Positions 1 to 16,511 of a stretch of 64,000 bases of DNA are shown here, one piece after another. The stretch lies in the IMG/VR virus record IMGVR_UViG_3300010399_000003, positions 48,853 through 112,852 of that record; one strand, given 5' to 3'. Origin of the DNA: a virus. Positions within the stretch are counted from its first letter, which is position 1. Each line of letters starts with the position of its first letter. The notes under the pieces were generated by a model that was given only the letters and a program-made list of their open reading frames with translations, searched no databases and was not told the origin of the DNA. The position numbers were made by a program, and so were the translations under genes.

Positions 1-1073
1 AGTCGCCATCAGCGACTCAGCGGCAACTTGTACAGCAAACAATCCAGCAGCAAGTAACGCAAGATTTTGCGTAAAGATTTTCACTACTGGTGGCAGTGAA
101 TCGTAGGCTTTGTACACATTGACAGCGCCGGTCACTGTCATGCTTACAAACTGACCGGTTGTTTCAATGATGCCTTTCAGCATATCCGCGAGATGTTGCA
201 TCGCAGGACCGACTTCAGTTTGTATACCAGCGACTGAATCACGCAACGATGTACCTAAAGCATACCAGGATTTAATCGCCACATTGGTGATTGGCAACAG
301 AACCGTGCCGATTTGTTCAGATACCTGCTGCCACGCGCGTTCCGACGAACCGGCAATCTTCGATGAATATTCCATCGACAGGCCGTACAAACCAGCTTTC
401 TCAGCACCTTCTTTCAGAACCGCATTGAGCAGCGCTTGTTGTTTTTCCGCACCAGTCAAAGCTCCGCCACTCTTGCCTATACTCTTTGCGTATTCATCCG
501 TTGCTTGTGTCAGTGTTGTCGTGAAACCAGCACCACGTAAAAGCATCGTATTCATGCCTGTGATGCCGGCAACAATTCGCTTGAAGGTCTCTGATGAACT
601 CTCACCAGAGATTGTCGCCATATTTTGCGCGACTGCCGAAAGCTCCGTAGCTCGTTTCAAATCGATATGCGCGCTGAGCAACTGAACAATCGCATCCCGA
701 GATTGGACGCCAGTGATACCAGTCTTTTCAATTTTAATTGCGAGATCATCAATGAATTTTGCCGAGTAACCAGCGTTCTGGCCAAGGAAACGCGTGACGC
801 CACCGAGCTGCTCTAAGCGAGCACCGGCCATCAACGATTCTTTAACGATATTGGTTGTAAAACTGACAGCTTGTTGCGCATACGATGCAAGAGTATTTCC
901 AAGAAAAGCACCAACCGTTGCAGCCGAAGTCATGCTGCCCTGAAGAGTATCAATCCCCTTTGCGGTGTGCAGCGAAGCTTCGCCAGTCTGCTTAAGTGCG
1001 ACGTCAATTCTCGCCAAGATTGACGAGAGTTGATCTTCGAGAGTAATGTTACCTGTAAGGGTTCCGATATCCA
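1..1073 (-). CDS. Tape measure protein, N-terminal part (partial; continues past the window start)
   Basis: Translating the reverse complement from the ATG at 1071-1073 gives a long open frame: MDIGTLTGNITLEDQLSSILARIDV...GITGVQSRDAIVQLL...GLYGLSMEYSSKIAGS... It is Ala/Gly/Gln-rich like a tape measure protein. It follows G/GT-like chaperone genes, and its ATG overlaps the upstream stop (TAATG). Confidence 0.55.
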
Positions 1074-1418
1074 TTACTGTTTCTCAAGTTCGTCCCACGG
1101 AATCGGTGGTGGAAGCGGCATATCGATTGGAACACCCATCAAAATCCGCATTCTCATTTCTTGTTGCTCTGGAGTCTGTGTAACCTTCTGTGGCTCCTGT
1201 TCTTCGAATTGCAAACGAAAATCTTCGAGTGAATAGGCGCGTTGCCCTCTTCCACGATAGATATTAGCAAGCACCGTAGCGATTGAAGCGGCACGATAAT
1301 CCGCGCGTAATTCGTTGAAGGGCTCAAGTCGTGCATACAATTCCCATTCAATGAATTCCTTGGCCGTGAGACTACGGAGCATCCGTTTCACGCTGGCTTT
1401 TCCAAGCCTCACGGCCAA
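1074..1418 (-). CDS. T-frame segment of tail assembly chaperone (GT fusion made by -1 frameshift from the G gene)
   Basis: Frame is -1 relative to 1451..1846. The -1 frame stays open from 1574 down to 1076, overlapping the G C-terminus. It lies immediately upstream of the tape measure gene. Confidence 0.5.
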   Translation of the reverse strand: MAVRLGKASVKRMLRSLTAKEFIEWELYARLEPFNELRADYRAASIATVLANIYRGRGQRAYSLEDFRLQFEEQEPQKVTQTPEQQEMRMRILMGVPIDMPLPPPIPWDELEKQ

Positions 1419-1450
1419 TTGATATGCAAAGCGACGCCGTGATGATCGCT

Positions 1451-1846
1451 TCAGTCTTTTTTTGTTGCTGCTTCCGCGTTCACCGTCATGCCATTGAGTT
1501 TCAGGATTTCTTTGACGATCCGTTCCGTCACCTTGTGACTCTTCTGGCGAAACACGGCAATGTTCTTCGGATTGTCAGCGAAACGCACGCCTTTGCTATT
1601 CACAAGGCTCTTCGTGATCAGCCGAAGACCAGCAGTCCGTTTGGCCTCACCCTCGTTTGCTTCTGACCACTCGATGAGATCACCAGCGGTCAGTGAAGCA
1701 ATCCGAAATGGTTTGCCAGGAGTGAATCCCTCAATGGTCGCATACTCAACGTCATTCGCGCTGAGGATGTCATCCATTGACTCGACCTGATTCGTGTCTG
1801 TCACCGCAACAGCTTCTTTTTCATCCATGATTTTCTCCCCACGCAT
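1451..1846 (-). CDS. Tail assembly chaperone (G-like)
   Basis: 131 aa, acidic. It sits between the tail tube-like gene and the tape measure gene and ends in an A7 slippery run. Confidence 0.5.
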   Translation of the reverse strand: MRGEKIMDEKEAVAVTDTNQVESMDDILSANDVEYATIEGFTPGKPFRIASLTAGDLIEWSEANEGEAKRTAGLRLITKSLVNSKGVRFADNPKNIAVFRQKSHKVTERIVKEILKLNGMTVNAEAATKKD

Positions 1847-1928
1847 TTAGCGCCCGATCTTTCTTCTACGTCAGTGTCCCTCGCAAAGATCGGGCAGAAA
1901 GTGGACTACTGACGCTGCGTGGGGCAGC

Positions 1929-2381
1929 TTATCCGCCGTACACGACACCGTTGATCGTGAACAGCCCACTGAAAACGAGAGTCACGTCTGCCGACAGTTT
2001 TCCATCGACAGGCGCCTTCGGCGAAACTGCCTTGACCTGACCGCTCATGACCCATACGGACGCGCCACCGGCCGCAGGGAACGTGAACTTGTAACCGTCT
2101 ACCGGCGGTGGCTCCGTGATGAGCGCCGCAAGCAAGCCGGTCAGGTGGTCGTGCGTTCCGTCATTCGGCAAGAAATTGAGCGGAATCGTACAATCGCCAC
2201 GACGTAGCACGCCCAGCACGCGTGCATCGATGTTTCGATTCTGCGTCGTTGCGTCGAATTCCGCACGTGACATTGGCGGGAAATTCACGTCACCGAGTTC
2301 AGCGATGTCCGTGAAAACCGTCGGCGTCGCCGCGAGAGCTCGCGCAACTTTTGTTCCGTGACCACTGATCGCTAGTGTCAT
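1929..2381 (-). CDS. Major tail (tube) protein
   Basis: 150 aa. Position directly upstream of the chaperone genes; predicted beta-rich. Confidence 0.45.
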   Translation of the reverse strand: MTLAISGHGTKVARALAATPTVFTDIAELGDVNFPPMSRAEFDATTQNRNIDARVLGVLRRGDCTIPLNFLPNDGTHDHLTGLLAALITEPPPVDGYKFTFPAAGGASVWVMSGQVKAVSPKAPVDGKLSADVTLVFSGLFTINGVVYGG

Positions 2382-2406
2382 CTGTTGTTTCTCCTGTTGA
2401 AAATCA

Positions 2407-2808
2407 TTACGACGGAGCTTTCTCGGCTTCTATGTTAAACACGAGCTGAAACCGTCCAGAACCATCTGCACCCATGTCAGTAGGTTCCTGTCGTGCTCGA
2501 ATGCTGAGATAGAACACGCCGCTCAGCACAGTGTTGGTAACTCCATCCAATGAATTGTACGCTGCTTTGCTCATCGCACGCGCTGATGCATAAGTCGCAG
2601 CACGCACAAGAATTTGAGCAGTTGGTCGTTGAGTCGCCGCCGTCGTTTGATTCTGTTTTCGTGAAGGTGCCATTCCACCAGTTTCTGAGACGGTCAGGTA
2701 AGGACCATTTCCAGTCGGAATGATCGCCGCGGAACTCTTGAAAATGGATGTTCCAAGAACTCCGACCCCGTCCGAAACTAATTTGGCTGCAATCTCGTCA
2801 AGAAACAT
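2407..2808 (-). CDS. Tail terminator/completion-like protein
   Basis: 133 aa. Call rests on position only. Confidence 0.3.
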   Translation of the reverse strand: MFLDEIAAKLVSDGVGVLGTSIFKSSAAIIPTGNGPYLTVSETGGMAPSRKQNQTTAATQRPTAQILVRAATYASARAMSKAAYNSLDGVTNTVLSGVFYLSIRARQEPTDMGADGSGRFQLVFNIEAEKAPS

Positions 2809-3242
2809 TATTTTTCGTCAAAATTCAAACGCACAGCCAATCGCCGAAGCATATCGTGCTGAGCCTCGTTAATCGGTCCTTCCAAATACTTAGGTCCAGT
2901 TCCAGGAGTCGTCCACGAAATCGGATGTCCATTTTCCATCGCGGTAATCCACGACGGTGGCGAATGATCAGAAAGATGTTCGTGAACTGCAATTGCATAT
3001 TCACTGGCTGCGCCGCCGTAGGACATCGTCACAGTGAAATTGTCGCCCTCTTGAACTGGTTTCGAAACCATACCGCTCGCACGCAACGTTCCGCCATCCA
3101 TAGCGACCGGACAGCGACGTTTCGATTCCGTCATGATTTCTTGCGCTTCTTGATACAATGCAGCCTTGACTCGCTGTGGAGCTTCTCGTGCGATTTTTCG
3201 CACAGTTGAACGCATTGCCTCAAGACCGCGCCACTTAATCAT
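2808..3242 (-). CDS. HK97 gp10-like head-tail joining component
   Basis: 144 aa. Position and size. Start overlaps the upstream stop. Confidence 0.3.
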   Translation of the reverse strand: MIKWRGLEAMRSTVRKIAREAPQRVKAALYQEAQEIMTESKRRCPVAMDGGTLRASGMVSKPVQEGDNFTVTMSYGGAASEYAIAVHEHLSDHSPPSWITAMENGHPISWTTPGTGPKYLEGPINEAQHDMLRRLAVRLNFDEK

Positions 3243-4471
3243 ACGGTCGCTGCTTCTTGTTGTGCCAGCACGTATTGAATGGCTTCAGCAAAATCTTTTC
3301 CAATGCTCGCCCAGCGAAAACGATCTTGCTTGACTAACTCCAAACCAGCTTTAGACAATTCAGCTCGTTTCTCTTTATCGTTGTACAGAGTATCGAGTGC
3401 TGTAATGAATGCGTCCTTATCCGGCACGCCGCCAATCACATTCACATATGGCATGCCGATTGCAATGTTGGAACACGGAATTTGTATTGCAGCATCGGCA
3501 GTCAATTCACCGAGTGCCGCCCAGTTCGGTACGATCTGTGGAACACCGCACGCCATTCCTTCAAAAGTGGTCAGTCCGAAACCCTCGCCCTGAGTCGTCG
3601 AAATTTGCACATCGAAACAATTGTATGTGTCGCGCATGTGCTGTTCCGAAACGCCATACCAAACAGGTGGTTCCATGAATGCCAGTTTAGCAAGCACGCC
3701 ATAGTAACGAGCAAGCTGCTTCACGTCAACGCCAGCTTCTCCGGTTGGCGCCGCATGCAAATACAAGAATGCATCGCTGATCTTCTTGGACTTGATCCAT
3801 TCAGCAAAATATTGAATAGTTAAATCCCAACGTTTCCGTGGCTGATTGCGGTTCACATTTCCAACAATGAATGCGTCATCCAAATCTTTTGGTAGCCGAC
3901 GGCTCCGACATTCCAGTCGATCCATCGGCCAATATGTGTCCAGATCAACACCCAAAGGAATGACCGTCGCAGGTCCGCGATATGATCCATTTCGCGCTTC
4001 ATCCATCGCGAATTTTGTCCAGAAGATAGCAAGCGAAATACCTTCAAGCCACGGCCCTTGAAAATTCTTCCCGTCAACAGCCAGCGATACGATCACCGGA
4101 ACCTTTTGGAACTTCGGTAACTTCTGCAACTCATCGATGTAGAACGGAATATTCCATCCGTCCTGCTGAATAACAATGACGTCAGGTTCAACGTGTGCAC
4201 ACATCCATGGCAATCGACCAACGCCAAAGAAATCGCCACCAGGAGCTGCTGCAAAAATTGGATACGGATACTCGTGCGGATCACCACGATAATTAATGCC
4301 CAAAACAGTCACGTCGTAAATCTTGTGCAGTGTCTCCAGCGTTTTATGAGTCGCCAGAGCGAAACCACTCGGACATCCGGCATCTCCAATCCACAGCAAC
4401 TTCTTCTTCATACGTTGTGTCCCAACAGCGCGATGACCTCTGGACGCCAAACGATTTGATCGGCCGTCCAT
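3239..4471 (-). CDS. Glycosyltransferase, GT-B fold (GT4-like)
   Basis: 410 aa. GT4-type motif ...TTQGEGFGLTTFEGMACGVPQIV... Confidence 0.65.
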   Translation of the reverse strand: MDGRSNRLASRGHRAVGTQRMKKKLLWIGDAGCPSGFALATHKTLETLHKIYDVTVLGINYRGDPHEYPYPIFAAAPGGDFFGVGRLPWMCAHVEPDVIVIQQDGWNIPFYIDELQKLPKFQKVPVIVSLAVDGKNFQGPWLEGISLAIFWTKFAMDEARNGSYRGPATVIPLGVDLDTYWPMDRLECRSRRLPKDLDDAFIVGNVNRNQPRKRWDLTIQYFAEWIKSKKISDAFLYLHAAPTGEAGVDVKQLARYYGVLAKLAFMEPPVWYGVSEQHMRDTYNCFDVQISTTQGEGFGLTTFEGMACGVPQIVPNWAALGELTADAAIQIPCSNIAIGMPYVNVIGGVPDKDAFITALDTLYNDKEKRAELSKAGLELVKQDRFRWASIGKDFAEAIQYVLAQQEAATV

Positions 4472-5115
4472 TTCATCGTCTCAAGAAAGTGACAATCCCC
4501 ACCAACGAAGGAACCCCACGTTCCAAACATCTGAGGATCGTTTGGGATGAGCATCATCGGAGTGCCGACATTCCCGCAGCGCAAAATTGCACCCTGCCAC
4601 AAGACAAGACCATTCGGATATTGCATCCTGAACAGAACCGGTCGGTCAGGAGTTTGAAGCATGGCATCGGCCATGAGTTGCCGTGTGCCAGGTGCATAGT
4701 AATCATCGTCATCGATATGTGCAATGTATTGACTACTCGCCTTTGGCTGTGCAAAATTTCGTTCTGCCGCACCCCAATCTTTTCCAGGAGGACACGCAAG
4801 GAAACGAACCTGCGGCCCAAGAAACTGTTGTAAATTTGCTTCCAGCGATTCATCACCGACTAACACGATTTCGTCACCAGCTTGCAATTCAATCGACGCC
4901 AACGTTCTAGCCAAAGTTGGCCGACCGATTGTTGGAACGAGGAAGCTAACTGTTGACACCAGCGCCTCCAATGCCACGAAGCTGTTCCCAACTCGGATCA
5001 GATTCCCATTTCGTCCGATAATTTGAAGCTGCGCGTTGAAATTTCTGATGATGCGCAGTCCATTCAGCATCGGTGAAATATTCCGGAGTTGCACTCTGCT
5101 TATGCTGCACTCCAC
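4408..5115 (-). CDS. Glycosyltransferase, GT-A fold (true start likely internal, near 4960)
   Basis: SFLVPTIGRPTL... and HIDDDDYY (DxD). The listed N-terminus overlaps the upstream gene, so the real start is probably later. Confidence 0.45.
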   Translation of the reverse strand: MECSISRVQLRNISPMLNGLRIIRNFNAQLQIIGRNGNLIRVGNSFVALEALVSTVSFLVPTIGRPTLARTLASIELQAGDEIVLVGDESLEANLQQFLGPQVRFLACPPGKDWGAAERNFAQPKASSQYIAHIDDDDYYAPGTRQLMADAMLQTPDRPVLFRMQYPNGLVLWQGAILRCGNVGTPMMLIPNDPQMFGTWGSFVGGDCHFLETMKWTADQIVWRPEVIALLGHNV

Positions 5116-5590
5116 ACTGGACTACAGCATCACAAACATCAGCTAATCGCATTCGACGAAGATAATCCATATCTTCGAAATACGCATAGCCAGGAGAAAT
5201 CGTTTCATCGAAAACGCCGACCTTCTCGACGCATGCATCGCGAATCAGGAAGCACGAAAATCCGAATCCGCAGCTTACAAAACTTGCAGTGGCCGCAACC
5301 ATCTTTTCCAATGAGTCCGGTGCGAATGTAATATCGTCATTCGTAATGAATCGCTCTTCGCGGATATTCGTGATGAACCAATTCCAGGCCTCAGCAAGAC
5401 CCATCGGTTCAGAAGGCGAAAACACATTGACCGGAAATGTTGCTTCCGCGATTGCTTTCGTCAATCGTGCATTGTCCTGCCCATTATCGATGATTTCCAT
5501 CGTTAGCGGAACCGTGCTTTCATTCAGCGACAAGATCATCTTCCGCAAAAGATCATATCGTTTCAGCACAGGCACGCACACGCTAATCAT
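4946..5590 (-). CDS. Glycosyltransferase family 2-like
   Basis: MISVCVPVLKRYDLLRKMILSL...IIDNGQDN, a GT2 N-terminal signature. Confidence 0.6.
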   Translation of the reverse strand: MISVCVPVLKRYDLLRKMILSLNESTVPLTMEIIDNGQDNARLTKAIAEATFPVNVFSPSEPMGLAEAWNWFITNIREERFITNDDITFAPDSLEKMVAATASFVSCGFGFSCFLIRDACVEKVGVFDETISPGYAYFEDMDYLRRMRLADVCDAVVQCGVQHKQSATPEYFTDAEWTAHHQKFQRAASNYRTKWESDPSWEQLRGIGGAGVNS

Positions 5591-6249
5591 AGTTTCTCCT
5601 TCAATGTGTTAACAGCGTCCCTCACTGCAGCTGCATGAATCTCAGCCCAATAATTCGGACGTCTTCGCACAATGTCCTTATCAGCTTCTACAAACACCTG
5701 ATCAGGAGAGTAACCGGACCAATCGTGTTCAATCTGCACATCGGGAACCATGATGCACCGATCAAAGACTTGCATCACATCACGTAAGAAAATATCACCC
5801 CAGAAGATTCTCGGATCCCATAGAAAGCCAAGCGCATTAGTAACACGACGCGACACGGTGGCGAACGGAAAGTGATCCTGATTCAGGGTCGACACACCGA
5901 TGTCGAATAGACCATCCGGATACTGGTTCGCGATTTCCAATATCCGCGTGGACCAATCAGGTGTTCGAAAGATCATGTCGTCGTTGCCACACATCAAAAC
6001 GTCGCCAGTCGCCACGCAATGCATTTCGTTGAAGAACGTTGGCATACTGTCGTAACCATTGTAACGCGGTCCGACAACAACATGTTGATCATGCAAAAAT
6101 TGCTGGCTTGCCACATCGTCATCATCAACGCGAAACACTAGCTCCGCGTCCTCCTGATGGACAGTCTGTTCAAACGATTCAAACACCTTACGCAACCGAT
6201 GAACGCGGTTTCGCGTTGGGATAAGGACGGACACCTTGGTGAATGGCAT
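5587..6249 (-). CDS. Glycosyltransferase family 2-like
   Basis: VSVLIPTRNRVHRL...FRVDDDDV. ATGA overlap with the downstream gene. Confidence 0.6.
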   Translation of the reverse strand: MPFTKVSVLIPTRNRVHRLRKVFESFEQTVHQEDAELVFRVDDDDVASQQFLHDQHVVVGPRYNGYDSMPTFFNEMHCVATGDVLMCGNDDMIFRTPDWSTRILEIANQYPDGLFDIGVSTLNQDHFPFATVSRRVTNALGFLWDPRIFWGDIFLRDVMQVFDRCIMVPDVQIEHDWSGYSPDQVFVEADKDIVRRRPNYWAEIHAAAVRDAVNTLKEKL

Positions 6250-6389
6250 GTTTGTTCATCAAGTGCTGCAGCACTGCCGCTTCCTGGTCTTTTGTCAGAT
6301 TTCCATTGTCGTCAGCGATGAGCGCAACGTTATCGTAGAATTCATCGCTGCATTTGGAGCAACCACGAAGTAATCCATTGAGTTCCATA

Positions 6390-7988
6390 TCAGTGCCCCG
6401 CGTATGAAACAGTGCTTGCGGCCGTCAGCGTTCCTTTGTGAACGGCTTCATCCTGTTGTTTCCGAATACGCACATCTTCGTCCCATTCCGCTTTTGCCCA
6501 CCCATTATCAACGAGGAAATCAAACATCATTCGTTTGATGGTAAACATTTCCTTGATTGTCGTCCCATGCGGGCGGACAAGAATTTCGTCGCGTGCTGAG
6601 AACCCAACAATCCATTGATTATCGTAATTGTAATCTAGGATTTCCAATCCGCTTTCTTGTGGGTGTGTCCACCATCGTGAACCTGGATACGGAATTCCTA
6701 CTGCAAGATTGCAAGAATCCAAATATGGTTTGACAGATTTCAACCACGCTATGGTCTCTTTTGCGGTCTCCATCGTTTCACCGGCAAGACCAGCAACCAA
6801 GAACGCGATCGTATAGAAACCGTGTTTCTTCGCGTTAACCAATGCCGCAGTGTTCTGCGCGACCGTCGTACCCTTCCAATTTGCATCGAGGATTTTTTGA
6901 CTCCCTGATTCAATACCAAAACACGTGACTCGAGTGTTCATTAACTTGAGAGATTCCGCAACATGGTCATCCATAGTATTGACACGAGTATGGATGCGGG
7001 CAGCGAAACTCCCCGAACCAAAAGCAGCATGAACAGCAGAAGCAAGCTCACGAAGCTTAGTGCGATGAAGCGTGTAGGTATCATCTTGGAATTTGAACAT
7101 CCGCACGCCTTTATCCATCACTTGTGCCATTTCCGCAATGATGTTATGCGGCGAGCGATATCGAGGTTTCTGACCGATCCACGGCGTGGAACAATATGTG
7201 CACTTGTACGGACAACCACGTGTCCCGATGAGCGACATGACTGCGCTCGATGAATCAGGGTATTCCGAGTTCGGAAAGTATCGCTTCTTCATGACAGCGA
7301 CACCGTCGTTGTAAATGTGATCTTGGGGCAAAAGATCCCATGCGGGGAACGGAATAGCATCCAAGTCCAGAACGTCAGATTTATCTCCGTAGTAGAAAGG
7401 CTGCAACTTTCCAGCATCCCAATCTGTGAGCAACTGACGGACTGCAACTTCACCTTCCATCACCACTACAGCATCAAATAATTCCCGTCCGTCCAGAGCT
7501 CGATAATCACGGCGCTGGCGAAGAACTCCTTGATAGTGATAGTTTTCTTGTCGCCCTGCTTCTTTGACTTCTTTTGGTTCATACGAAGGATGCGGACCGC
7601 CGGCAACAAGCAACGCTTCCGGGCAACGATCTTTGATGTAAGCAGCGAGTTCCAGAGCCTCACCGAATTGTGGTGTACAGAAACCAAACATATGAACGTC
7701 GGAATCCATGACGTCTTCGGGGAGGTGGATGTTGCCTTCATAGCGTTTATCCAACATCGAAGTGACGATAACGTCATGCCCATCTTCGCGAAGCAAACCA
7801 GCGATGTATAACACGCCAAGCGGAATGTTTGTCTTAGAATCAGCAAGCCATGGCGAGCTCGGCAAAATGCAGTGAATCTTGCGCGGACGGATTTTTCGAA
7901 TCGGCAATCCAGAAGTCGTAATGGCTTCACAGAGCGTATGATCGCTCATTTGATATCCCGATGAAGCCATTGTTAATCGTTTGGACAT
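6390..7988 (-). CDS. B12-binding radical SAM enzyme (class B-like); start adjusted to the internal Met
   Basis: N-terminal B12-binding-like region. Radical SAM cluster GTRGCPYKCTYCSTP (CxxxCxxC). The listed ORF start overlaps the upstream gene. Confidence 0.7.
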   Translation of the reverse strand: MSKRLTMASSGYQMSDHTLCEAITTSGLPIRKIRPRKIHCILPSSPWLADSKTNIPLGVLYIAGLLREDGHDVIVTSMLDKRYEGNIHLPEDVMDSDVHMFGFCTPQFGEALELAAYIKDRCPEALLVAGGPHPSYEPKEVKEAGRQENYHYQGVLRQRRDYRALDGRELFDAVVVMEGEVAVRQLLTDWDAGKLQPFYYGDKSDVLDLDAIPFPAWDLLPQDHIYNDGVAVMKKRYFPNSEYPDSSSAVMSLIGTRGCPYKCTYCSTPWIGQKPRYRSPHNIIAEMAQVMDKGVRMFKFQDDTYTLHRTKLRELASAVHAAFGSGSFAARIHTRVNTMDDHVAESLKLMNTRVTCFGIESGSQKILDANWKGTTVAQNTAALVNAKKHGFYTIAFLVAGLAGETMETAKETIAWLKSVKPYLDSCNLAVGIPYPGSRWWTHPQESGLEILDYNYDNQWIVGFSARDEILVRPHGTTIKEMFTIKRMMFDFLVDNGWAKAEWDEDVRIRKQQDEAVHKGTLTAASTVSYAGH

Positions 7989-7998
7989 TACCCAGTCC

Positions 7999-8775
7999 TC
8001 AGTAAGGTTTGCTGCCCTCGTAACGTGCCCACAATTCACGGATGTCTACACCGAGTTGATTCAATTGCGAATGTGCCAACTCAATGTCCCGTGTTGCAGA
8101 GTGCTGCGGATGATAAAAGAGCACCTCCGGAATTCGCACAAAGTCGACACCGTCCTTGTACAACTTGTATTGGAAATGCGTTTGTGAATGACCCCATGCG
8201 GATAGTTTTTCATCTAGACCATGAACTGCATCGAACGCATCTTTGCGTGCAAGCCAGACACCTGTATCGATGGCTGTATAATCGTACGTCATCCCCGGCA
8301 TATTCTGCAATATGCCAGCTCCATCAATACGCCATCTTGTTTCTTCGCACTGACTCATGTTTACATGAAGATGACGTCCATCTGCAGTGATAAATCCATT
8401 CCAGGAATTATGATGTGCTTCACGAACTTGCAAGAATTTCGCGAGAAGATTTGAATCTAACAAATAGTCGGCACGGCAAAACAAAACCCACGGAGTTCGT
8501 GCATAGCCAACCGCTGTGTTTGTCGACCACGCATGAGTCTTAAGCGGATCATCATGTTTCAACGAATGTAATTCAACATTTCGTATCGGAAATTCAAATT
8601 TTTCCAATACTGATTTGATTTGCATCACTGAATCATCAGTATCGTTATCAACAATAACAAGTGATTCTACAAAATGCTGCATCAAAACAAAATCTTGCTT
8701 ATACAACGAATACAAAGCTGCTTCAAGATTCGCTAAGGTCAGGCTCTTAAAATAGACGAAACAGATCGTGATCAT
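7999..8775 (-). CDS. Glycosyltransferase family 2-like
   Basis: MITICFVYFKSLTLANLEAALYSL...IVDNDTDDS. ATGA overlap with the upstream gene. Confidence 0.55.
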   Translation of the reverse strand: MITICFVYFKSLTLANLEAALYSLYKQDFVLMQHFVESLVIVDNDTDDSVMQIKSVLEKFEFPIRNVELHSLKHDDPLKTHAWSTNTAVGYARTPWVLFCRADYLLDSNLLAKFLQVREAHHNSWNGFITADGRHLHVNMSQCEETRWRIDGAGILQNMPGMTYDYTAIDTGVWLARKDAFDAVHGLDEKLSAWGHSQTHFQYKLYKDGVDFVRIPEVLFYHPQHSATRDIELAHSQLNQLGVDIRELWARYEGSKPY

Positions 8776-9155
8776 CCGATCATCACCGTCGTTGCAATCG
8801 GATTCCCAGTTCCGGCATCCACGAATCCACCGATATCCAATGTTGGACCAGAATCACCATCTGGAAAGATGAACTGATCGTCATTATCAATGCCCTGACC
8901 ATTCGTCGCTGCGACGATTTCGGCAATATCAAGCAGTGTGATCGTTGCACGTGTGACGGTCAGGACTCCCTCTCTCGTCCGAACTTGCTTGGCTTGAAAA
9001 TCGACAATCGCGTGTAAAGGAACAGCAGTTGCGTATGTCTTCGCACCATATTCATCCGTGCCAGTTTCACGTTTGTACATCACCGTCGCTTGAATCGGCC
9101 GTGTCACCCGATTTGCAATCTCGACGCCAGAACGAAGAACATCGAGTAAACTCAT
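8772..9155 (-). CDS. Head-tail adaptor/closure-like protein
   Basis: 127 aa. Translationally coupled, downstream of a connector-like gene. Confidence 0.3.
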   Translation of the reverse strand: MSLLDVLRSGVEIANRVTRPIQATVMYKRETGTDEYGAKTYATAVPLHAIVDFQAKQVRTREGVLTVTRATITLLDIAEIVAATNGQGIDNDDQFIFPDGDSGPTLDIGGFVDAGTGNPIATTVMIG

Positions 9156-9754
9156 GGCCGATAATAGGATCCATATGAGACGACATCGAATTGCGCAGTC
9201 TGCACAAATTCAATGCTCTCATCAGTCAACCAACTTGGCACCATCCACACGTCCACGATCTGTGGTAACAAGGGCAACGGTTCGACGTTGTCCTTAAAGT
9301 TCACGGACACTGAACCGGCACTCACCGATTTGATTCCCTGTATTGCCACATCATTTTCGATTAGTCGATCCGTTTTCGAAATCTGTCCGGCGAGTTCGGC
9401 TGTGGCAAATTTCAAATCTTGTGGAATGACGTTACTCGGAATCGCATTTCCATTCCGATCGTACATTCCAATGCGAGGCCATGGCAAGGCTTGAGTCGTA
9501 GTAGCCGGTGCGCCAGTCCAGGTGCGGCTGATCAGGTAACGGTCGCCATCGCCGGAATCCGTTCGGATTAAGCGACGATGCAATGTATAGGCAGCAACGA
9601 TCATGCGAGTCGCAGTGATGAGTAGCGAAGTTTTCTCTTCGGCGGTCTCATCCCACAGTGCAATATGCGCACGGTCAGCCCAATACGCATCCGCTTCTTC
9701 AACAGTGATGAACGAATTGGAATTAGCACCACCGACTGTTGCATCCAGAGGCAT
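9152..9754 (-). CDS. Head-tail connector protein (HK97 gp6-like N-terminus)
   Basis: N-terminus ...SFITVEEADAYWADRAHIALWDETAEEKTSLLITATRMI... resembles gp6-like connectors. Confidence 0.4.
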   Translation of the reverse strand: MPLDATVGGANSNSFITVEEADAYWADRAHIALWDETAEEKTSLLITATRMIVAAYTLHRRLIRTDSGDGDRYLISRTWTGAPATTTQALPWPRIGMYDRNGNAIPSNVIPQDLKFATAELAGQISKTDRLIENDVAIQGIKSVSAGSVSVNFKDNVEPLPLLPQIVDVWMVPSWLTDESIEFVQTAQFDVVSYGSYYRP

Positions 9755-10024
9755 TTATTCCTCCTTGGGTTTCAACGCCTCAGTTTCTTCTGCGCGGATG
9801 GCTTCGAGTTCGCGTTCACGAGCTGCCATCATACGTTCCCGGATCACTTGGGAATTTTCTTCTGAAGTGCTGATTCCTTCCGCGTTGCATTTCAGGATTT
9901 CCGCGTTCATCACGTCTTGAATTCGCCGCGCTTTAGCACGACTTGAACCAGAACGACTGACTGCCACGCCAACGGCCGTGACAATTTTCGATTCCGGCTT
10001 GGGCGTTGGTTCTTGAGACATCAA
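9755..10024 (-). CDS. Hypothetical virion-module protein (Glu/Arg-rich)
   Basis: 89 aa. Coupled to neighbouring genes. Confidence 0.3.
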   Translation of the reverse strand: MMSQEPTPKPESKIVTAVGVAVSRSGSSRAKARRIQDVMNAEILKCNAEGISTSEENSQVIRERMMAARERELEAIRAEETEALKPKEE

Positions 10025-10449
10025 TCCTCCGTAATCGCCGTCGCGGTACTCAACGATGGCGTAACGCCGTTGCCTGTAACGATGTTCGGTGTGACAGTGC
10101 CAGAATAGAACAACACGCCAGCACCGGAAATAGATTTACCAACACCGAAATGCGTTACAGTGCCTGAGCCACCAGTTCCCGCGGGGAATGTGATAGCTGC
10201 AACCGGACTCACGCTGTTGTTTGTAACCGTCCATCCGCTAGATGTCCGGACCACCGCGACACGAGCATAACTCGTGTAAGTGGTTTCACTCGTTGTCTGA
10301 TCACCAGCTTCACCAGGATCTGCCGTGTGAAGACTTGTATAAATATCGGTGATCGGTGAAGAAGTGGCATTGATCGCAACGTTCGCAAAAGTTGTTGCAT
10401 TGAAAATTAGCAACAACAGCGAATTTTCAAACGAGTTGCTTTTCGACAT
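10021..10449 (-). CDS. Hypothetical Thr/Ser-rich structural protein
   Basis: 142 aa, beta-rich composition. Confidence 0.3.
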   Translation of the reverse strand: MSKSNSFENSLLLLIFNATTFANVAINATSSPITDIYTSLHTADPGEAGDQTTSETTYTSYARVAVVRTSSGWTVTNNSVSPVAAITFPAGTGGSGTVTHFGVGKSISGAGVLFYSGTVTPNIVTGNGVTPSLSTATAITED

Positions 10450-10668
10450 GAAAACTCCTATTGACAGACGCGCCGAAGGCGCTCAAGCAACGAAATCCCA
10501 GAAAATCCTTCGCGCACAATTTTCTCGTTCATCACCGCTCGTAAGGTATCACGATGATTAAAAGAGCAATGCAACAAATAAGAGCATGCAACACCAATCG
10601 CATCATGAATCGGCATGGCATAAAGAATCTGCAACACTGCAGTTTGCGCTGCGATATCCGGCCCTTGC

Positions 10669-11052
10669 TTAGTGAGCGGTGGCTTGGAGGAAAGTGATTC
10701 CACCATAAGCAAGTATCCCCTCATTTCCTGTATCGATGCGTTTCAGTGAATAACGATACGTGATTGGTTTCAGACTCGATGTTTCATCACTGTCAAATGT
10801 GATTACCACACGTTGTTGATTCTGATCCGGATTTGAATTAAAGATACCAGAGATGACGATATCGGTTGGCGTTGCTTTCCGTGGAATCACCGGTGGATCT
10901 GCTGCCTTGTCAGTCTTCCGAACAATGAATTCCATCTGCCAAGCCGAAACATCAAGAGGATTTCCACTCGCATCCGAAATCTTGAAAGACAAGATTTTAT
11001 CTTCGCCAAGAAACCAACGCTTATCGGCGTCGATGTTGAATTCAATAGCCAT
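10669..11052 (-). CDS. Ig-like/beta-sandwich small protein
   Basis: 127 aa. Confidence 0.3.
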   Translation of the reverse strand: MAIEFNIDADKRWFLGEDKILSFKISDASGNPLDVSAWQMEFIVRKTDKAADPPVIPRKATPTDIVISGIFNSNPDQNQQRVVITFDSDETSSLKPITYRYSLKRIDTGNEGILAYGGITFLQATAH

Positions 11053-11058
11053 TTCTAA

Positions 11059-12105
11059 TCACGGCATTGTGCGTAGAGCACGTGCACCGACACCACTCTG
11101 ACCAACTGCAACAAAACGATTCAAAGTACTAGACCACGCAATTTCTTGCCAATCCAAGGATTCCGCATAACCAATCACGATCATTGCGGGTGTGCCATCC
11201 ATCACACCAATTCGTCCCGTTGATGAAAGTGCAACAACCAAATCAAATTCTGGAGAATAAGCCATCGCTCGCCAATTATTTCCACCCTGACCACCAGGAG
11301 CAATCGTCCACGTAATTCCGTCGGTTGAAATCAACAGCGCCGCAGATGTTACATCACGATTTAATGCAATGAACACGTTCCACGAATGAACGTATAGAAA
11401 ATCGTACCACGCACCACTTGTGATATTTGGAATTGTATTGACTGTCCACGTAATACCATCCGTGGAGCGCATCATACGGCTTGTAGCAACGCCACTATCG
11501 GCACCGGCAATGAACAAACCTTTTTGATCGGACCGAATAACACCTTCCCATTGCTGATTCAACGGTGTCGTACGTAAAGTCCATGTATGTGCATTTGGCG
11601 AGGTCATCACCTGATTCGGATGACCATCCCAAGATACAGCAACTAACAAATGGAGCGATTCAGACCATGCGAGATCGTGCCAACCATTTGCTGCAGGAAT
11701 AGTCTCAAGTGTCCATGTAATTCCATCAGGGCTGGTCATAATCCCGCCCTGTGCTGCTGCAATAAACAAACCAAGTGTCTCAACCCAAATGACTGAAACC
11801 CAGCCTTTCGTTGGCGTCGGAGTAGTCCGGATAATCCAATCAAATCCATCTTGCGATGTCATGACTTGATTGCCCGACCCAGTCGAAGAAACAGCAACAA
11901 AAAGATTAAGCGATTCTGAACGGCATACTGAACGCCAATTATTATCGACTGGAGTCGCAGTCGGAACCCATTCTAAAACTGCTAAAGATCCAAGTGCTTG
12001 ATGCACATCATTATTCCAATATTGCTGTGGTTTGATCACGCCTTCAGGAAGCGCTTCATCATCAACAATATCGGATTTCTGTCTATGCTGAATACGAATA
12101 GCCAT
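11059..12105 (-). CDS. BNR/Asp-box repeat beta-propeller protein
   Basis: Repeated S-x-D-G-x-T-W boxes: TSQDGFDW, TSPDGITWT, TSPNAHTWT, STDGITWT (twice). Confidence 0.55.
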   Translation of the reverse strand: MAIRIQHRQKSDIVDDEALPEGVIKPQQYWNNDVHQALGSLAVLEWVPTATPVDNNWRSVCRSESLNLFVAVSSTGSGNQVMTSQDGFDWIIRTTPTPTKGWVSVIWVETLGLFIAAAQGGIMTSPDGITWTLETIPAANGWHDLAWSESLHLLVAVSWDGHPNQVMTSPNAHTWTLRTTPLNQQWEGVIRSDQKGLFIAGADSGVATSRMMRSTDGITWTVNTIPNITSGAWYDFLYVHSWNVFIALNRDVTSAALLISTDGITWTIAPGGQGGNNWRAMAYSPEFDLVVALSSTGRIGVMDGTPAMIVIGYAESLDWQEIAWSSTLNRFVAVGQSGVGARALRTMP

Positions 12106-12309
12106 TATTGAAATGCACCAACCTGAAACGCACCATTTTGGAATGCGGTTGTCCTGGCAACAACTACTTCAGGTTCTTCCGTATCGGATTGTCCAATGCC
12201 ATCAATCGTTTTCCCAAACAACGCATTGCATACAATTGTCGGATCAACGAATTGAGCCAACGCATCAATACTCGTTGAACTGTTTCCAATCGCATTAATG
12301 ATTCGAATA

Positions 12310-13677
12310 TCAGGCGGCATTCGAAATCACCTGCGAAAAACTTCCAGTCCCACGTATCACGGACAATCGTAATGAAGCAAGACTTTCAGCATCAGCGTCG
12401 CTTGTACCTTCGGCGGACCCGACCGCAATAATCAGGTCTCTACCAACTGCTTGTGCGTCGGCAATTCCATTAACGATACCAATTCCTTGCGCTTGCGATG
12501 CACCGATTGCACTCGCCGTTGCAGATCCAGAAGCGGCACCGACGCCTGGAACAAATGCGCCGCCGACTGCACTTGCCGCACTTGAACCAGCAGCCGCGCC
12601 GACACTAATTTTGAGACTGATGCCATCAGCAGTCGCAGTGGATAAACCAGACGAAGATCCGATTGCTTGCGCAGCACTTTTACCAACGGCAGTCGCATCG
12701 CCAAGACCGGCTGCGGATCCAATGCCAACAGTCGTTGCTTTGCCAACCGCTGTGACTGTACTTGTACCAGATGCATTTCCAACAGCAGTAACTAGAGCGG
12801 AACCGATAGCCGTTGCAGTGCTTGAACCACTTGCTGCACCAAGATTGGCTTCAGCATTTGCACCAAAGACGGACGATGTACCAGCTGCTGAGCCAATTGA
12901 ACTGGCTGTTGATTTACCAGTCGCGGTGGCCGAACTTGTCCCATCCGCTGCGCCAATACTCTGTGCAGTGGAAGCACCGACCGCCGTAACTGTGGAAGAC
13001 CCAGAAGCATTTCCAACCGCCGTGACTAATGCAGCACCAACCGCTGTGACTGTGCTTGAACCGCTGGTTGTTCCAACAGGAGCTTGCGGTGTAGATACAC
13101 CTGATGCATCAGCAACGCCAGCCGCGGAACCAATCGATGACGCCGTAGATTGACCGACAGCCGTTGCGCTCGCACTACCAGCCGCAGAACCTGTTGATGA
13201 TGCTGTTGATGCACCGACTGCAGTTGCAGTCGCGACACTTGATGCATTTCCAACCGCGGAAACGAAACTCGAACCGACTGCCGTGGCAGTTGAAGAACCA
13301 GCTGCATTGCCGGCACCAGCTGCGACAGCAAATGCAATTGCCGCAGCTGTTGCTAATCCGGCAGCAGCACCAGCTCCAATGAATTTCGCGGCACCAACTG
13401 CAGCCGCAGCACCAACACCAGCCGCTGCACCATCAGATCGCGCTGTTGATGCACCGACTGCCGTAACGGTTGAAGTACCAGCGGCCGAAGCCGAAGAAGA
13501 TGCTTGCGATGCACCAACTGCCGTAACAGTCGAAGTACCCGCAGCTGCACCAGCTCCACTAGTAACGCCACCACCAGTTTCGGCAGCATCCGGAGAAAAC
13601 AAACCACCAGCATTGAGTTCTGTATCGAAAAGTCCGAAAGACGATAACGCCGAATCAAAAATTCCCGGTTTAGCCAT
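12310..13677 (-). CDS. Ala/Gly/Ser/Thr repeat-rich fibre-like protein
   Basis: 455 aa. Many approximately 11/22-aa repeats such as GSSTVTAVGASTAQSIGSAAG. Confidence 0.5.
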   Translation of the reverse strand: MAKPGIFDSALSSFGLFDTELNAGGLFSPDAAETGGGVTSGAGAAAGTSTVTAVGASQASSSASAAGTSTVTAVGASTARSDGAAAGVGAAAAVGAAKFIGAGAAAGLATAAAIAFAVAAGAGNAAGSSTATAVGSSFVSAVGNASSVATATAVGASTASSTGSAAGSASATAVGQSTASSIGSAAGVADASGVSTPQAPVGTTSGSSTVTAVGAALVTAVGNASGSSTVTAVGASTAQSIGAADGTSSATATGKSTASSIGSAAGTSSVFGANAEANLGAASGSSTATAIGSALVTAVGNASGTSTVTAVGKATTVGIGSAAGLGDATAVGKSAAQAIGSSSGLSTATADGISLKISVGAAAGSSAASAVGGAFVPGVGAASGSATASAIGASQAQGIGIVNGIADAQAVGRDLIIAVGSAEGTSDADAESLASLRLSVIRGTGSFSQVISNAA

Positions 13678-14194
13678 TCAGATAATCCGGCCAGACCGCT
13701 CTCAATTCCTCTATTGTTTGCGCAGATTCAATTTCAGGGAGATCGGTCACATCGCGCAATCGTTGTTTCTTCGTCGCGATTTCCTGAGTCCGATTATCGC
13801 GAGTCGCCGCGCCAGTTCCAGGCAGTTCCATCGCGCGAACCATTTCAATATCCAGCAATGCTAATTTCTCATTACGAACCGCCCGCATTCGCTCACGATG
13901 TATTTCACGTGCTTTCGGCATATCGAATTGTAATTTGCGATCTTTATCAACCAGCGCATTTCGATAAATCCGATCTTGTGGTACTTCTCGCCGATCAATC
14001 AATCGCCAAGAAACTGGTGCACCTTGAGGGAACATCGATTTATCGATTTCTTTCTGAATATTTTGTTCCGTTGGTGGTTTAGACCACCGTGGCACGCCAT
14101 TGTCATCATAATCTGTCGTTATGAATGACATGATACCAACACTTCCATCTTTGAAAGTCAGCGCAATAGTTTCAACGTCTGGAGGTCGCGGCAT
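13670..14194 (-). CDS. Hypothetical protein
   Basis: 174 aa. Coupled to neighbours. Confidence 0.3.
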   Translation of the reverse strand: MPRPPDVETIALTFKDGSVGIMSFITTDYDDNGVPRWSKPPTEQNIQKEIDKSMFPQGAPVSWRLIDRREVPQDRIYRNALVDKDRKLQFDMPKAREIHRERMRAVRNEKLALLDIEMVRAMELPGTGAATRDNRTQEIATKKQRLRDVTDLPEIESAQTIEELRAVWPDYLNG

Positions 14195-15006
14195 TATTGA
14201 TCTCCAAGTCCGTTAATATGCCAAGCCGTCGGATCCGTCTGCAAAGCAGTCGTTGCAGTGCCATCCCAACATTCACACAGCACTGTACCAGCAGCTTGAC
14301 CCGCATTACGAACTGCTGCTTGGCGTAAGTTAGCAACCGTTAGCGATGTCGAAGTTCGTTCGACGTTCACCTGACAAGCCCAGTTTGTTGAGGAAAAGTC
14401 CACGTTGATGGTTACGGTCACCTGACCAGTTCCCGTATCGGTTAAGCTCGTGACATTGTAACTACCAAGAATATTTGCGGTGACGCCGCACTTAACCCAA
14501 AACTTGCCATGACCAGGATGGAAATGCTGTCGAGCAGGTGTGACGGCATCCGTCGTTGACGTAGCGGATTCCATTTCGGCTTGAGTCGCCGTTTGAATCA
14601 CGCCAGCCAATGTATCGGATGCTGCACTCGCACCCATCTTCACGCCACCATTAGTATCATAAACGAACCAGACGCCCTGTTCGTTCATGACGAGCACTTC
14701 GCCAGCAGCTAGTGTGACGTTGAATAATTCAACGATATTTGTTCCATCGAAGAATTCGATTCGAACCGTATTCGATGACGATGCATGCGAATTACGAATA
14801 TTGAGACCACGGACATTTCGTGTCGTACCAGTACTTGGCGCCCCTACCAATGTTGTCGTCGTAGCAGTGACAATCAATGTTGGCGTATTCTGACTATCAA
14901 ATGTACTTGGAGGCGTAAAGTCAGTCCAACTTGCAAGCACGTCGATATCAGCCGTGCCACTTGTTACAGCACGAATGACTGATGCGTTTGTGTCCAGATT
15001 CAACAT
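14194..15006 (-). CDS. Hypothetical beta-rich structural protein
   Basis: 270 aa, Thr/Ser/Val-rich. Confidence 0.35.
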   Translation of the reverse strand: MLNLDTNASVIRAVTSGTADIDVLASWTDFTPPSTFDSQNTPTLIVTATTTTLVGAPSTGTTRNVRGLNIRNSHASSSNTVRIEFFDGTNIVELFNVTLAAGEVLVMNEQGVWFVYDTNGGVKMGASAASDTLAGVIQTATQAEMESATSTTDAVTPARQHFHPGHGKFWVKCGVTANILGSYNVTSLTDTGTGQVTVTINVDFSSTNWACQVNVERTSTSLTVANLRQAAVRNAGQAAGTVLCECWDGTATTALQTDPTAWHINGLGDQ

Positions 15007-15674
15007 CAGCCAAGCCTCTGAGTTATGGCAAACGGTTGACTAGCAACATATGGAATCGGCGGTCGCCATGCAACTACTCCAATAGAAAACGTTCCGGACG
15101 CACCAGTAAACGAAGCAGTCACACTAGCTCCATTACGTCCAGACAGAAGTGCGTATTCAGACCAATCTTGCTGAGTATCGTCTGCACCCTTCGTAGCTGC
15201 AGCGCCATCAATATTGCCAACCGCTGTAATTGAATCGGCGCACCACGCCCATACAGCACAATCGTCAGCGTCCAATACAATAGCTCCAGATAATGGCGAA
15301 CCAGTCGTTGCGACTGTTGAAATTTTCGGACCAAGCACACGTGAAGATTGATCAGTGCCACGAAAGATATCGACCAAAACCACACGAAATGTATTAGTAT
15401 TGCTCGCAGTGATTGTAATAGTTGTAGAAACTGCACTCTTCGCAAAACAATACCAACTCTGCAAAACATCCAATCCAGCATTGTTTGTAAACAATGGGTT
15501 TGCCGTAAACCACGTATTTCCATCTGAATCCGCAATTGAAAGCGTTCCACCAGCATTTGCCAATCCGCCAACAGCAATCAGGTCACCAACCGCAGGTGTG
15601 ATGCTCGCCGATACTTGTGTTCCAGACGTATTTGCAAAATTCGCAGCTGAAGCAACTGGATGCGTGATCCCCAC
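15006..15674 (-). CDS. Hypothetical beta-rich structural protein
   Basis: 222 aa. ATG overlaps the downstream gene. Confidence 0.35.
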   Translation of the reverse strand: MGITHPVASAANFANTSGTQVSASITPAVGDLIAVGGLANAGGTLSIADSDGNTWFTANPLFTNNAGLDVLQSWYCFAKSAVSTTITITASNTNTFRVVLVDIFRGTDQSSRVLGPKISTVATTGSPLSGAIVLDADDCAVWAWCADSITAVGNIDGAAATKGADDTQQDWSEYALLSGRNGASVTASFTGASGTFSIGVVAWRPPIPYVASQPFAITQRLG

Positions 15675-16494: not shown

Positions 16495-16511
16495 TGTGGC
16501 CGGTCCTCCGA

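Follow-up and report, generated by a model that had tools for sequence, protein, structure and literature searches.

Chloroviruses such as PBCV-1 and NY-2A glycosylate their major capsid protein with soluble glycosyltransferases (GTs) and a methyltransferase activity of their own. Among phages, the only experimental demonstrations of virion glycosylation to date are in some mycobacteriophages, in which the modification dampens the neutralising-antibody response (Freeman 2023, as summarised in PMC11600133), and the glycans there are reported at the C-termini of capsid and tail tube subunits (Freeman 2023, as summarised in PMC12619734). Here we describe a stretch of 64,000 nucleotides, hereafter the window, which covers positions 48,853 to 112,852 of the IMG/VR virus record IMGVR_UViG_3300010399_000003 (source contig ENA ERZ27256670 k141_6328653, 112,870 bp, an uncultured metagenomic assembly). 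On its minus strand, between the head-tail connector and neck genes, lies a cassette (3239-8775; all coordinates are window positions) of five GTs and a radical S-adenosylmethionine (SAM) enzyme with a B12-binding domain, here called the rSAM. The cassette very probably builds a glycan, and it is a widespread, uncharacterised phage module of glycosylation and tailoring, set apart by the phage-specific rSAM and by its fixed position where head and tail are joined. The explanation that we favour, held at somewhat less than an even chance, is of an accessory and horizontally mobile unit that would build and tailor glycans on virion proteins.

A cassette of glycan enzymes at the head-tail junction

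The sequence-only reading of this DNA had listed one GT4 and four GT-A/GT2 enzymes together with the rSAM, and had placed them between adaptor/connector and tail genes. All six enzymes were confirmed at their coordinates on the minus strand, and the placement was borne out by the assignment of the flanking genes as the head-tail adaptor Ad1, the connector, Neck1, the tail terminator and the tube protein (Table 1). The same reading had described coupling of the genes through ATGA and TAATG junctions, which held for ATGA at most junctions. Five such overlaps were found (Ad1/connector, connector/GT-A#1, GT-A#2/GT-A#3, GT-A#4/GT4 and GT4/Neck1), while GT-A#3 and GT-A#4 overlap by 14 nt and the rSAM is joined to the small open reading frame (ORF) that follows it by TGAtATG; that ORF in turn overlaps GT-A#2 by 62 nt. 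The TAATG between GT-A#1 and the rSAM, in contrast, lies in a gap of 10 nt and does not form an overlapping stop and start, and the true TAATG junction is the one at Neck1/terminator (2808). The rSAM probably starts at the ATG at 7988, which has GAGG ahead of it, within an ORF called as 6390-8039. A scan of positions 1-20000 gave counts of promoter- and terminator-like sites no higher than those in shuffled sequence, and thus no internal regulatory signal.

The family matches of the GTs (Table 1) are accompanied by motifs that are kept among homologs. These are VDDDD and GNDD in GT-A#2 (28 homologs), DDDD in GT-A#4 (20 homologs) and, in GT4, the EX7E motif EGFGLTTFE (20 homologs); the NDD motif of GT-A#3 is less well conserved (15 homologs). 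The invariant residues of GT-A#1 are D43, N44, RADY101-104 and WGH.QT194-199, with RADY in place of the canonical DxD. An AlphaFold2 (AF2) model of GT-A#1, with a predicted local distance difference test score (pLDDT) of 94, has the GT-A fold, and a fold search with it returned WrtF, SpsA and the chondroitin polymerase K4CP at E values of about 1e-11, and also TarS and TarP. These are generic GT-A neighbours only, and the search did not indicate the acceptor. The best sequence match of GT4 in the PDB was 3oy2, the B736L protein of chlorovirus NY-2A (1.2e-10, full length). No membrane-helix-type hydrophobic segment was present in any cassette protein, from which we take the proteins to be soluble, and the domain assignments included no Wzx, Wzy or phosphoglycosyl-transferase in the cassette; this absence fits stepwise transfer onto a soluble acceptor.

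The small ORF between the rSAM and GT-A#2 has homologs of 42-51% identity at the same position in several relatives (L001, L004, L013, L014, L015, L022 and L023), and a further copy was read directly from the ORFs of L009. They share the motif C-x2-C...NV..I.DD.G.LT and the ORF has no match in Pfam or PHROG. It is optional and missing from many loci. The idea that it encodes the precursor of a ribosomally synthesized and post-translationally modified peptide (RiPP) was set aside, given this optional occurrence and neighbours that are GTs and not peptide-maturation genes.

For the comparison with other phages, 27 IMG/VR loci were analysed by tblastn and clustering, and the ORFs of 30 loci were clustered all against all. 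Metagenomes contain more than 1000 homologs of the rSAM, of which about 115 have 50-88% identity and all are from uncultured material, and the synteny of the cassette is kept in more than 30 independent contigs, which excludes chance. In the loci that resemble the window (group 1), the head-side order is protease, decoration, capsid and, further on, Ad1 and connector; the cassette follows as GT-A#1, methyltransferase, rSAM, the small ORF where present, GT-A#2, GT-A#3, GT-A#4 and GT4, and then come Neck1, terminator and tube. The order shows minor permutations, and a second GT4 occurs in some loci. The cassette stood between Ad1/connector and Neck1/terminator/tube in the 15 window-type loci with contigs that span the junction. 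In a second group of 12 loci (for example L003), the phages have a TerL of family PF03354, a protease-capsid fusion (PF04586) and a PF04860 portal, and the cassette (GT, GT2, GT-A#1, the methyltransferase in some, rSAM, GT-A, GT-A) lies between portal/head and tail-completion genes. GT-A#1, GT-A#2 and GT-A#4 were found in both lineages; GT-A#3 occurs in the window-type lineage only. Outside the cassette, the clustering of the 30 loci gave no protein cluster common to the two groups, and their head and tail genes have no detectable similarity. Because the cassette nevertheless has the same head-tail position in both, it has moved horizontally with its position kept. The rSAM is the most conserved gene of the cassette: its identity across both groups is 76-88% (76-86% in one comparison), compared with 45-62% for the GTs and 28-67% for structural proteins (42-68% for the connector).

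In most relatives, a class-I SAM methyltransferase of 235-265 amino acids (PF08241, 7e-12) is encoded between GT-A#1 and the rSAM. This gene is absent from the window, and the spacing of only 10 nt between the two genes (7988-7999) indicates that the methyltransferase was lost. In two loci (L001 and L014), a small DUF6527 protein is also encoded in this interval. Among phages with related capsids, some have a single GT4 (L124-126 and L145) and others no cassette (L128, L130 and L140), so that the cassette is accessory. In a third lineage (L108/L109, 9189-19147 of a contig of about 89 kb), a 34%-identical B12-type rSAM adjoins a Mu-type portal and has as its other neighbours a sulfotransferase, two GT2s, a sulfatase-like gene, two methyltransferases, a GT4 and a multi-domain GT of 1000 amino acids.

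Two further observations were made among the relatives. Several rSAM homologs (P0009, P0031, P0037, P0050, P0052, P0090 and P0093) reach 620-908 amino acids through inserted intein, Hint or homing-endonuclease domains (PF14890, PF01079 and PF05203); the window rSAM has no intein. In L003, of group 2, a protein with collagen triple-helix repeats (PF01391, 2.4e-34) is encoded after the portal and directly upstream of the GTs, as is a protein with a weak MptE/Maf-like match (PF01973, 0.0017). The collagen-like protein is a possible acceptor in group 2.

Megablast of window positions 1-20000 against GenBank phages gave no match, and hence no cultured close relative, and no close homolog of the rSAM was present in 50,697 GenBank phage records. 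The only GenBank phage match, in Streptomyces phage SF3 (26%), lies beside a thymidylate kinase and a Nudix hydrolase and was dismissed as not belonging to the same system. A profile of the rSAM searched against 185,579 species genomes had one close match, all others being at most 31% identical. This match (L028, JANLIC010000223.1) is a phage-like contig of 54 kb, in which the cassette stands together with the same structural genes of the phage, and it was binned with a Sulfuricaulis sp. metagenome-assembled genome. It hints only weakly at a Sulfuricaulis host, since a phage contig may have been binned there by mistake. The search thus pointed to no reliable host and no cellular ortholog, and the rSAM clade is, by these comparisons, phage-specific and has no characterised member.

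The radical SAM enzyme and its likely reaction

The cysteines of the CxxxCxxC motif of the rSAM (C259, C263 and C266) were invariant in 31 sequences, and the B12-binding domain (PF02310) occupies residues 72-160 of the long ORF. In the AF2 model (pLDDT 85.5), a Rossmann domain stands ahead of the barrel. Foldseek placed AprD4 at the top (E 4e-21, TM scores 0.62/0.72), followed by MgmA, TsrM, CysS, TokK and OxsB, and AprD4 was also the best sequence match in the PDB, with identity to any solved structure being about 20% at most. The B12-type Rossmann domain and the CxxxCxxC barrel are features that the rSAM has in common with AprD4, the C-methylases GenK and GenD1, HpnJ, MgmA, TsrM, TokK and CysS. 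All 26 NCBIfam matches were far below their cut-offs, the best being HpnJ with 105.8 bits against a required 577.6 (2.5e-30). Fold and sequence, therefore, put the rSAM among the B12-domain radical SAM enzymes without fixing its reaction. AprD4 is a radical SAM 1,2-diol dehydratase that acts on an aminoglycoside sugar and, to our knowledge, does not use cobalamin; MgmA is a protein glutamine C-methylase. The neighbourhood of the rSAM is one of glycan biosynthesis, and a 29%-identical homolog is grouped with a DegT/EryC1 sugar aminotransferase, GTs, methyltransferases and a second B12-type rSAM. This setting, like the L144 locus described next, points to a sugar as the substrate.

A clue to the reaction comes from the locus L144, in which no rSAM was detectable. 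The rSAM slot there holds a protein of 409 amino acids with a Zn-binding domain (PF08421), a methyltransferase domain (PF13489) and PF08484 (4e-28), which is the architecture of NDP-hexose C-methyltransferases of the TylC3/TcaB9 type. The cassette is otherwise orthologous to that of the window, with identities of 50% for GT-A#1, 64% for the methyltransferase, 54% for GT-A#2, 50% for GT-A#3, 63% for GT-A#4 and 66% for GT4. Our interpretation is that the L144 protein is a non-orthologous replacement for the pathway step of the rSAM, and such a replacement would favour sugar C-methylation by the rSAM. The suggestion of a common step comes from the shared cassette position, and the equivalence is one of position only, whereas fold and chemistry differ: enzymes of the TylC3/TcaB9 type carry out SAM methylation next to a 4-keto group, and the rSAM would apply radical chemistry at an unactivated carbon.

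Taking the fold, the sequence, the surroundings of remote homologs and the L144 locus into account, we consider it plausible, if not quite probable, that the rSAM is a sugar C-methylase. One could envision, instead, a dehydratase like AprD4 or a rearrangement enzyme like HpnJ, which would yield a deoxy or ring-contracted sugar. AprD4 heads both the Foldseek and the PDB sequence matches and HpnJ heads the NCBIfam matches, but the identity to AprD4 is about 20% and the HpnJ score is far under its cut-off; moreover, an AprD3-like reductase partner is absent from the cassette, and the replacement in L144 is of the C-methyltransferase type. We regard this alternative as rather unlikely. Another scenario is that the rSAM modifies a virion protein or other protein directly, for example by side-chain C-methylation as MgmA does on methyl-coenzyme M reductase, and that the GTs function independently of it. 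That MgmA is the second-best structural match, that the NCBIfam matches include methylases of RiPPs and of methyl-coenzyme M reductase, and that the small ORF follows the rSAM would all be in keeping with a protein substrate, and the greater conservation of the rSAM (76-88%, against 45-62% in the neighbouring GTs) hints at a distinct constraint. However, the rSAM is always embedded between GTs, its remote homologs occur alongside DegT aminotransferases, sulfotransferases, methyltransferases and GTs, the enzyme that replaces it in L144 is of a sugar C-methyltransferase type, and the small ORF is optional and missing from many loci. A protein substrate thus seems the least probable of the reactions considered here, and a very doubtful one.

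Virion proteins and other candidate acceptors

We envision that the cassette would be expressed late, together with the head- and tail-completion genes of a siphovirus-type phage of about 113 kb. The five soluble GTs (four GT-A/GT2 and one GT-B/GT4) would draw on nucleotide-sugars of the host and build, directly on an acceptor in the cytoplasm, a short hetero-oligosaccharide; this acceptor would most likely be one or more exposed virion proteins that are modified during synthesis and assembly. The B12-domain rSAM would tailor an unactivated carbon of one of the sugars, its most likely reaction being a C-methylation, and in most relatives the class-I SAM methyltransferase would carry out a further methylation, a step lost in the window phage. 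The conserved placement among head- and tail-completion genes in unrelated lineages strengthens the case for virion-linked glycosylation, as do the portal-side rSAM and GTs of the third lineage and the simpler sets of phiPsal1 and S-CBS4. The solubility of the enzymes, the absence of lipid-carrier machinery from the cassette and the chlorovirus relative of GT4 also speak for virion proteins. Judged from the genes, a virion protein as the acceptor is an evenly balanced proposition, and the more specific picture, in which uncultured environmental tailed phages of at least two lineages mature their virions with a dedicated B12-type rSAM that places a sugar, C-methylated or tailored by other radical chemistry, within an oligosaccharide attached to the virion, is doubtful.

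In the window, the capsid gene is separated from the head-tail adaptor gene by a fibre-like module of about 5.7 kb (10021-15674, minus strand). Its proteins are enriched in Ser and Thr (S+T fraction 0.22-0.31, compared with 0.07-0.19 in the other proteins examined). The module is variable and, in relatives that keep the cassette, it is missing from this position or found elsewhere; in L008 and L013, for example, Ad1 comes almost straight after the capsid gene. The sequence-only reading had taken these proteins as plausible substrates: the enrichment is real, and the substrate role is not upheld by the relatives that have the cassette and no module at this place. Its broader proposal of virion glycosylation gained from the head-tail position kept across lineages without detectable shared structural genes, and its suggestion of a radical-SAM-modified, for example C-methylated, sugar was favoured by the TylC3/TcaB9-type enzyme in the rSAM slot of L144 and disfavoured by AprD4, the closest structure, which is not a methylase.

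Several results count against the composite explanation. With respect to the acceptor, the fibre-like candidates belong to a variable module that is absent from its position in cassette-bearing relatives; no Ser/Thr-rich C-terminal tails were found on 9 capsid and 16 tube homologs, nor on the C-termini of decoration proteins (that such a tail would be the acceptor is our own assumption, the citing paper giving only that glycans are at C-termini); and neither clustering nor inspection of C-termini revealed an acceptor candidate shared between lineages or an acceptor motif. No mycobacteriophage homolog of GT4 or GT-A#3 was detected at E 1e-5 by tblastn in the 50,697 phage records, a search that did not include the other three GTs. 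The two lineages with the cassette have no other protein in common, the cassette is accessory and reduced or missing in some phages with related capsids, and gene position is indirect evidence of the target, for late expression would equally suit DNA before packaging or precursors of the host envelope. With respect to the rSAM, the nearest structure is a dehydratase and the next, MgmA, methylates protein, the NCBIfam matches are all below threshold, and the L144 protein might have been acquired for unrelated reasons and not stand in for the rSAM in function.

The main rival to a virion acceptor is the host envelope. According to this hypothesis, which we think unlikely, the cassette modifies cytoplasmic intermediates of lipopolysaccharide (LPS), O-antigen, teichoic acid or capsule and so masks receptors, with the effect that superinfection is blocked or progeny are kept from sticking to debris. 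Soluble GT-A enzymes encoded by prophages, such as TarP, glycosylate wall teichoic acid and would serve as a precedent. The fold of GT-A#1 resembles enzymes of cell-wall glycans (TarS, TarP, SpsA and the WrtF fucosyltransferase), and an accessory and variable cassette is what would be expected of a host-interaction module. Seroconversion genes, however, normally reside in lysogeny or moron regions and are not translationally coupled to connector and neck genes on either side; none of the window ORFs examined matched an integrase family, and the cassette has neither membrane-embedded components of the Gtr type nor transmembrane segments. Furthermore, a host-specific target would not explain a head-tail position that is kept across unrelated lineages whose hosts are probably different. 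The remaining alternative, glycosylation of the phage DNA itself as a base hypermodification shortly before packaging, which would act against restriction, is improbable in our estimation, and more so than an envelope target. DNA glucosylation is the best-known activity of phage GTs, the packaging genes share the transcription direction of the cassette, and the window phage has an amino acid:DNA transferase-like gene, a deoxynucleoside monophosphate (dNMP) phosphatase, an rSAM-SPASM protein and a GT2; diverse glycans on phage DNA have also been reported (Pyle 2024, as cited in PMC12619734). These modification genes, however, form a cluster of their own in the replication module, next to DNA polymerase A on the other strand (a probable DNA hypermodification cluster at 54809-62668), which includes its own GT2 and a weak alpha-glucosyltransferase-like match, and the existence of this separate cluster makes a DNA acceptor for the cassette less likely. 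In the loci examined, the cassette never adjoins nucleotide-metabolism genes and is flanked throughout by virion genes, and a DNA glycan would not usually call for a pathway as complex as one of five GTs.

The virion genes of the window form a minus-strand block that takes up about its first 41 kb. Past the tube gene, the source contig encodes a chaperone/Phage_tail_T protein and then a tape measure of more than 1289 amino acids; together with the tube protein, these indicate a siphovirus-type tail. A motif of about 20 amino acids (GGxGSGxxGHxGRPGxxGGS) occurs in at least seven copies over four large head-module proteins (Table 1) and may represent sites of protease cleavage, or linkers, in a polyprotein from which internal or ejected proteins are made. 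A candidate virion protein with a TIG domain is encoded at 16512-17018. Also in the structural operon (16072-16494, minus strand) is a gene for a 140-amino-acid protein without any family match, which has a lipoprotein-type signal sequence (MTRRLSILILLVVVAAAC, maximum KD19 2.21) and which, to judge from this sequence, could be a lipoprotein for superinfection exclusion or lysis. On the plus strand (46474-49059), a protein of 861 amino acids matches the major vault protein shoulder (PF11978, 3.6e-29), a Vault_3 repeat and SPFH/Band 7, which is unusual for a phage.

Table 1. Features of the window and of related loci, with coordinates in the sequence named in the second column and E values after the family matches.
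Feature	Sequence	Coordinates	Strand	Matches and remarks
Major tail (tube) protein	window	1929-2381	-	phrog_158 1.5e-6
Tail terminator	window	2407-2808	-	phrog_2595 5.5e-11; PF12691 (Phage_tail_terminator_6) on source contig
Neck1/HK97 gp10-like tail-completion protein	window	2808-3242	-	phrog_5 7e-7; PF04883; downstream cassette boundary
GT4 (GT-B) glycosyltransferase	window	3239-4411	-	phrog_2170 4e-31; PF20706, PF13692 and PF00534 above cut-offs
GT-A#4, core GT2	window	4408-4959	-	PF00535 9e-11; GTG start after GGAGG
GT-A#3, GT2-like	window	4946-5590	-	phrog_29879 ('galactosyl transferase') 1e-26; PF00535 2.4e-7
GT-A#2, core GT2-like	window	5587-6249	-	phrog_14945 8e-14; PF00535 weak (0.0069, below cut-off)
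Small CxxC ORF, 66 aa, optional accessory	window	6188-6388	-	conserved in relatives; missed in the sequence-only reading
B12-binding-domain radical SAM enzyme, 532 aa	window	6390-7988	-	PF04055 3.7e-17; PF02310 1.7e-10; CPYKCTYC
GT-A#1, core GT	window	7999-8775	-	PF02709 4.9e-6; PF00535 3.9e-5; beta4GalT/GalNAc-T-like C-terminal motif
Head-tail connector, directly upstream of GT-A#1	window	8772-9155	-	phrog_3881 2.4e-5
Head-tail adaptor Ad1	window	9152-9754	-	phrog_477 2.5e-32; PF20557; upstream cassette boundary
gp80-like fibre protein	window	10021-10449	-	PF23140 1.3e-14; 59-79% identical in relatives, mostly 71-79%
Beta-propeller-like protein	window	11059-12105	-	
Ala/Ser/Thr/Gly repeat protein, 455 aa	window	12310-13677	-	
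Tail-fibre-like protein	window	14194-15006	-	phrog_11355
Capsid	window	17208-18251	-	PF19774/phrog_771
Decoration	window	18286-18726	-	
Scaffold/protease-like	window	18767-21136	-	GGxGSGxxGHxGRPGxxGGS motif
Head-module protein	window	24126-26231	-	GGxGSGxxGHxGRPGxxGGS motif
Head-module protein	window	26228-27424	-	GGxGSGxxGHxGRPGxxGGS motif
Portal fusion, 1420 aa	window	27449-31711	-	portal PF06381; 2'-5' RNA ligase-like PF13563; bacterial topoisomerase IB PF01028/PF21338; GGxGSGxxGHxGRPGxxGGS motif
Large terminase	window	34573-36183	-	phrog_2
DNA polymerase A, beside DNA-modification cluster	window	52032-54086		
HAD hydrolase	window	54809-55468	+	
Amino acid:DNA transferase-like	window	55605-56489	+	PF18724 1e-7
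rSAM-SPASM	window	56467-57459	+	
Beta-glucosyl-HMC alpha-glucosyltransferase-like, weak	window	57432-58238	+	phrog_842 6.5e-4
GT2 of DNA-modification cluster	window	58613-59284	+	
dNMP phosphatase	window	60498-61118	+	phrog_318 5e-40
Methyltransferase of DNA-modification cluster	window	61401-61943	+	
AAA_33, weak, below Pfam cut-off	window	61940-62668	+	stronger match to small-terminase PHROG, phrog_800 2e-9
Class-I SAM methyltransferase	L001	2731-3456		
Class-I SAM methyltransferase	L004	about 9120-9814		ATG within ORF 8861-9814
Class-I SAM methyltransferase	L028	9207-9995		
Class-I SAM methyltransferase	L144	16362-17063		
Collagen-like protein	L003	6205-7128		
MptE/Maf-like protein	L003	7125-7730		

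Implications and comparison with known systems

The cassette suggests that virion glycosylation is much wider than the mycobacteriophage examples, occurring in at least two environmental lineages and, in simpler versions, in genomes of cultured cyanophages and actinophages. Its chemistry may also be richer, with up to five GTs or more, with tailoring that yields O-methyl, C-methyl or deoxy sugars, and with sulfation genes in a remote relative. If the more specific picture given above is correct, the rSAM would be the first enzyme of the radical SAM/cobalamin type to which a part in virion maturation is assigned; full-text searches for literature that links B12 or radical SAM enzymes with phage GTs and virions returned nothing relevant. 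If cobalamin is really used, the quality of the phage particles would be tied to the supply of cobalamin and iron-sulfur clusters in the host, and the identity of 76-88% among the rSAMs, together with the inteins in some homologs, would mark a key determinant of fitness. Glycan coats, if confirmed, could influence how phages adsorb, how stable they are, whether defence systems or predators recognise them, and how they behave in soils and sediments. In L144, a conventional sugar C-methyltransferase forms a natural swap for the rSAM, and heterologous expression would thereby offer a direct test of the function.

The closest arrangements in cultured phages are those of Pontimonas phage phiPsal1 and of Synechococcus phage S-CBS4 with S-EIVl. 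GT4 is 29-31% identical to genes of S-CBS4 and S-EIVl over 98% of its length and 27% identical to the GT4 of phiPsal1 over 59%, and GT-A#3 is 33% identical to the phiPsal1 GT2. The order in phiPsal1 is capsid, GT4, methyltransferase, GT2, neck, tail completion and tube, and that in S-CBS4 is portal, hypothetical protein, GT4, galactosyltransferase and methyltransferase. As in the window cassette and its relatives, a GT4, a GT2 and a methyltransferase are combined within the structural module and among virion genes; unlike the window cassette, these sets contain just two GTs and lack a radical SAM enzyme. The sets are annotated, no characterisation of them was found, and the source paper of phiPsal1 does not discuss its set.

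Other phage-encoded GTs that use host NDP-sugars are the seroconverting enzymes of the Gtr and TarP type and the alpha- and beta-GTs of T4. Gtr proteins, however, are membrane proteins that accompany lysogenic-conversion genes, whereas the cassette proteins are predicted to be soluble and have virion genes on either side. The DNA GTs of the T4 type sit with DNA-metabolism genes, whereas the DNA-modification genes of the window lie apart from the cassette. The chloroviruses are linked to the window through B736L (3oy2), the best solved relative of GT4, and this similarity is limited to the GT4 fold family; they differ in having a eukaryotic host, atypical N-linked capsid glycans and no radical SAM enzyme. 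The mycobacteriophage systems (Che8 and the Corndog-type phages of cluster O; Freeman et al. 2023, Cell Host Microbe 31:1216), as far as they are described in the summaries cited above, resemble the cassette in being accessory and in having tandem phage GTs, and the O-methyltransferase of cluster O has a counterpart in the methyltransferase of the window relatives. In the mycobacteriophages, glycans on virion proteins have been shown, whereas the window cassette is known from its genes. What distinguishes the cassette from these systems is its content of five GTs and a B12-type rSAM, and its position, wedged between the connector and neck genes.

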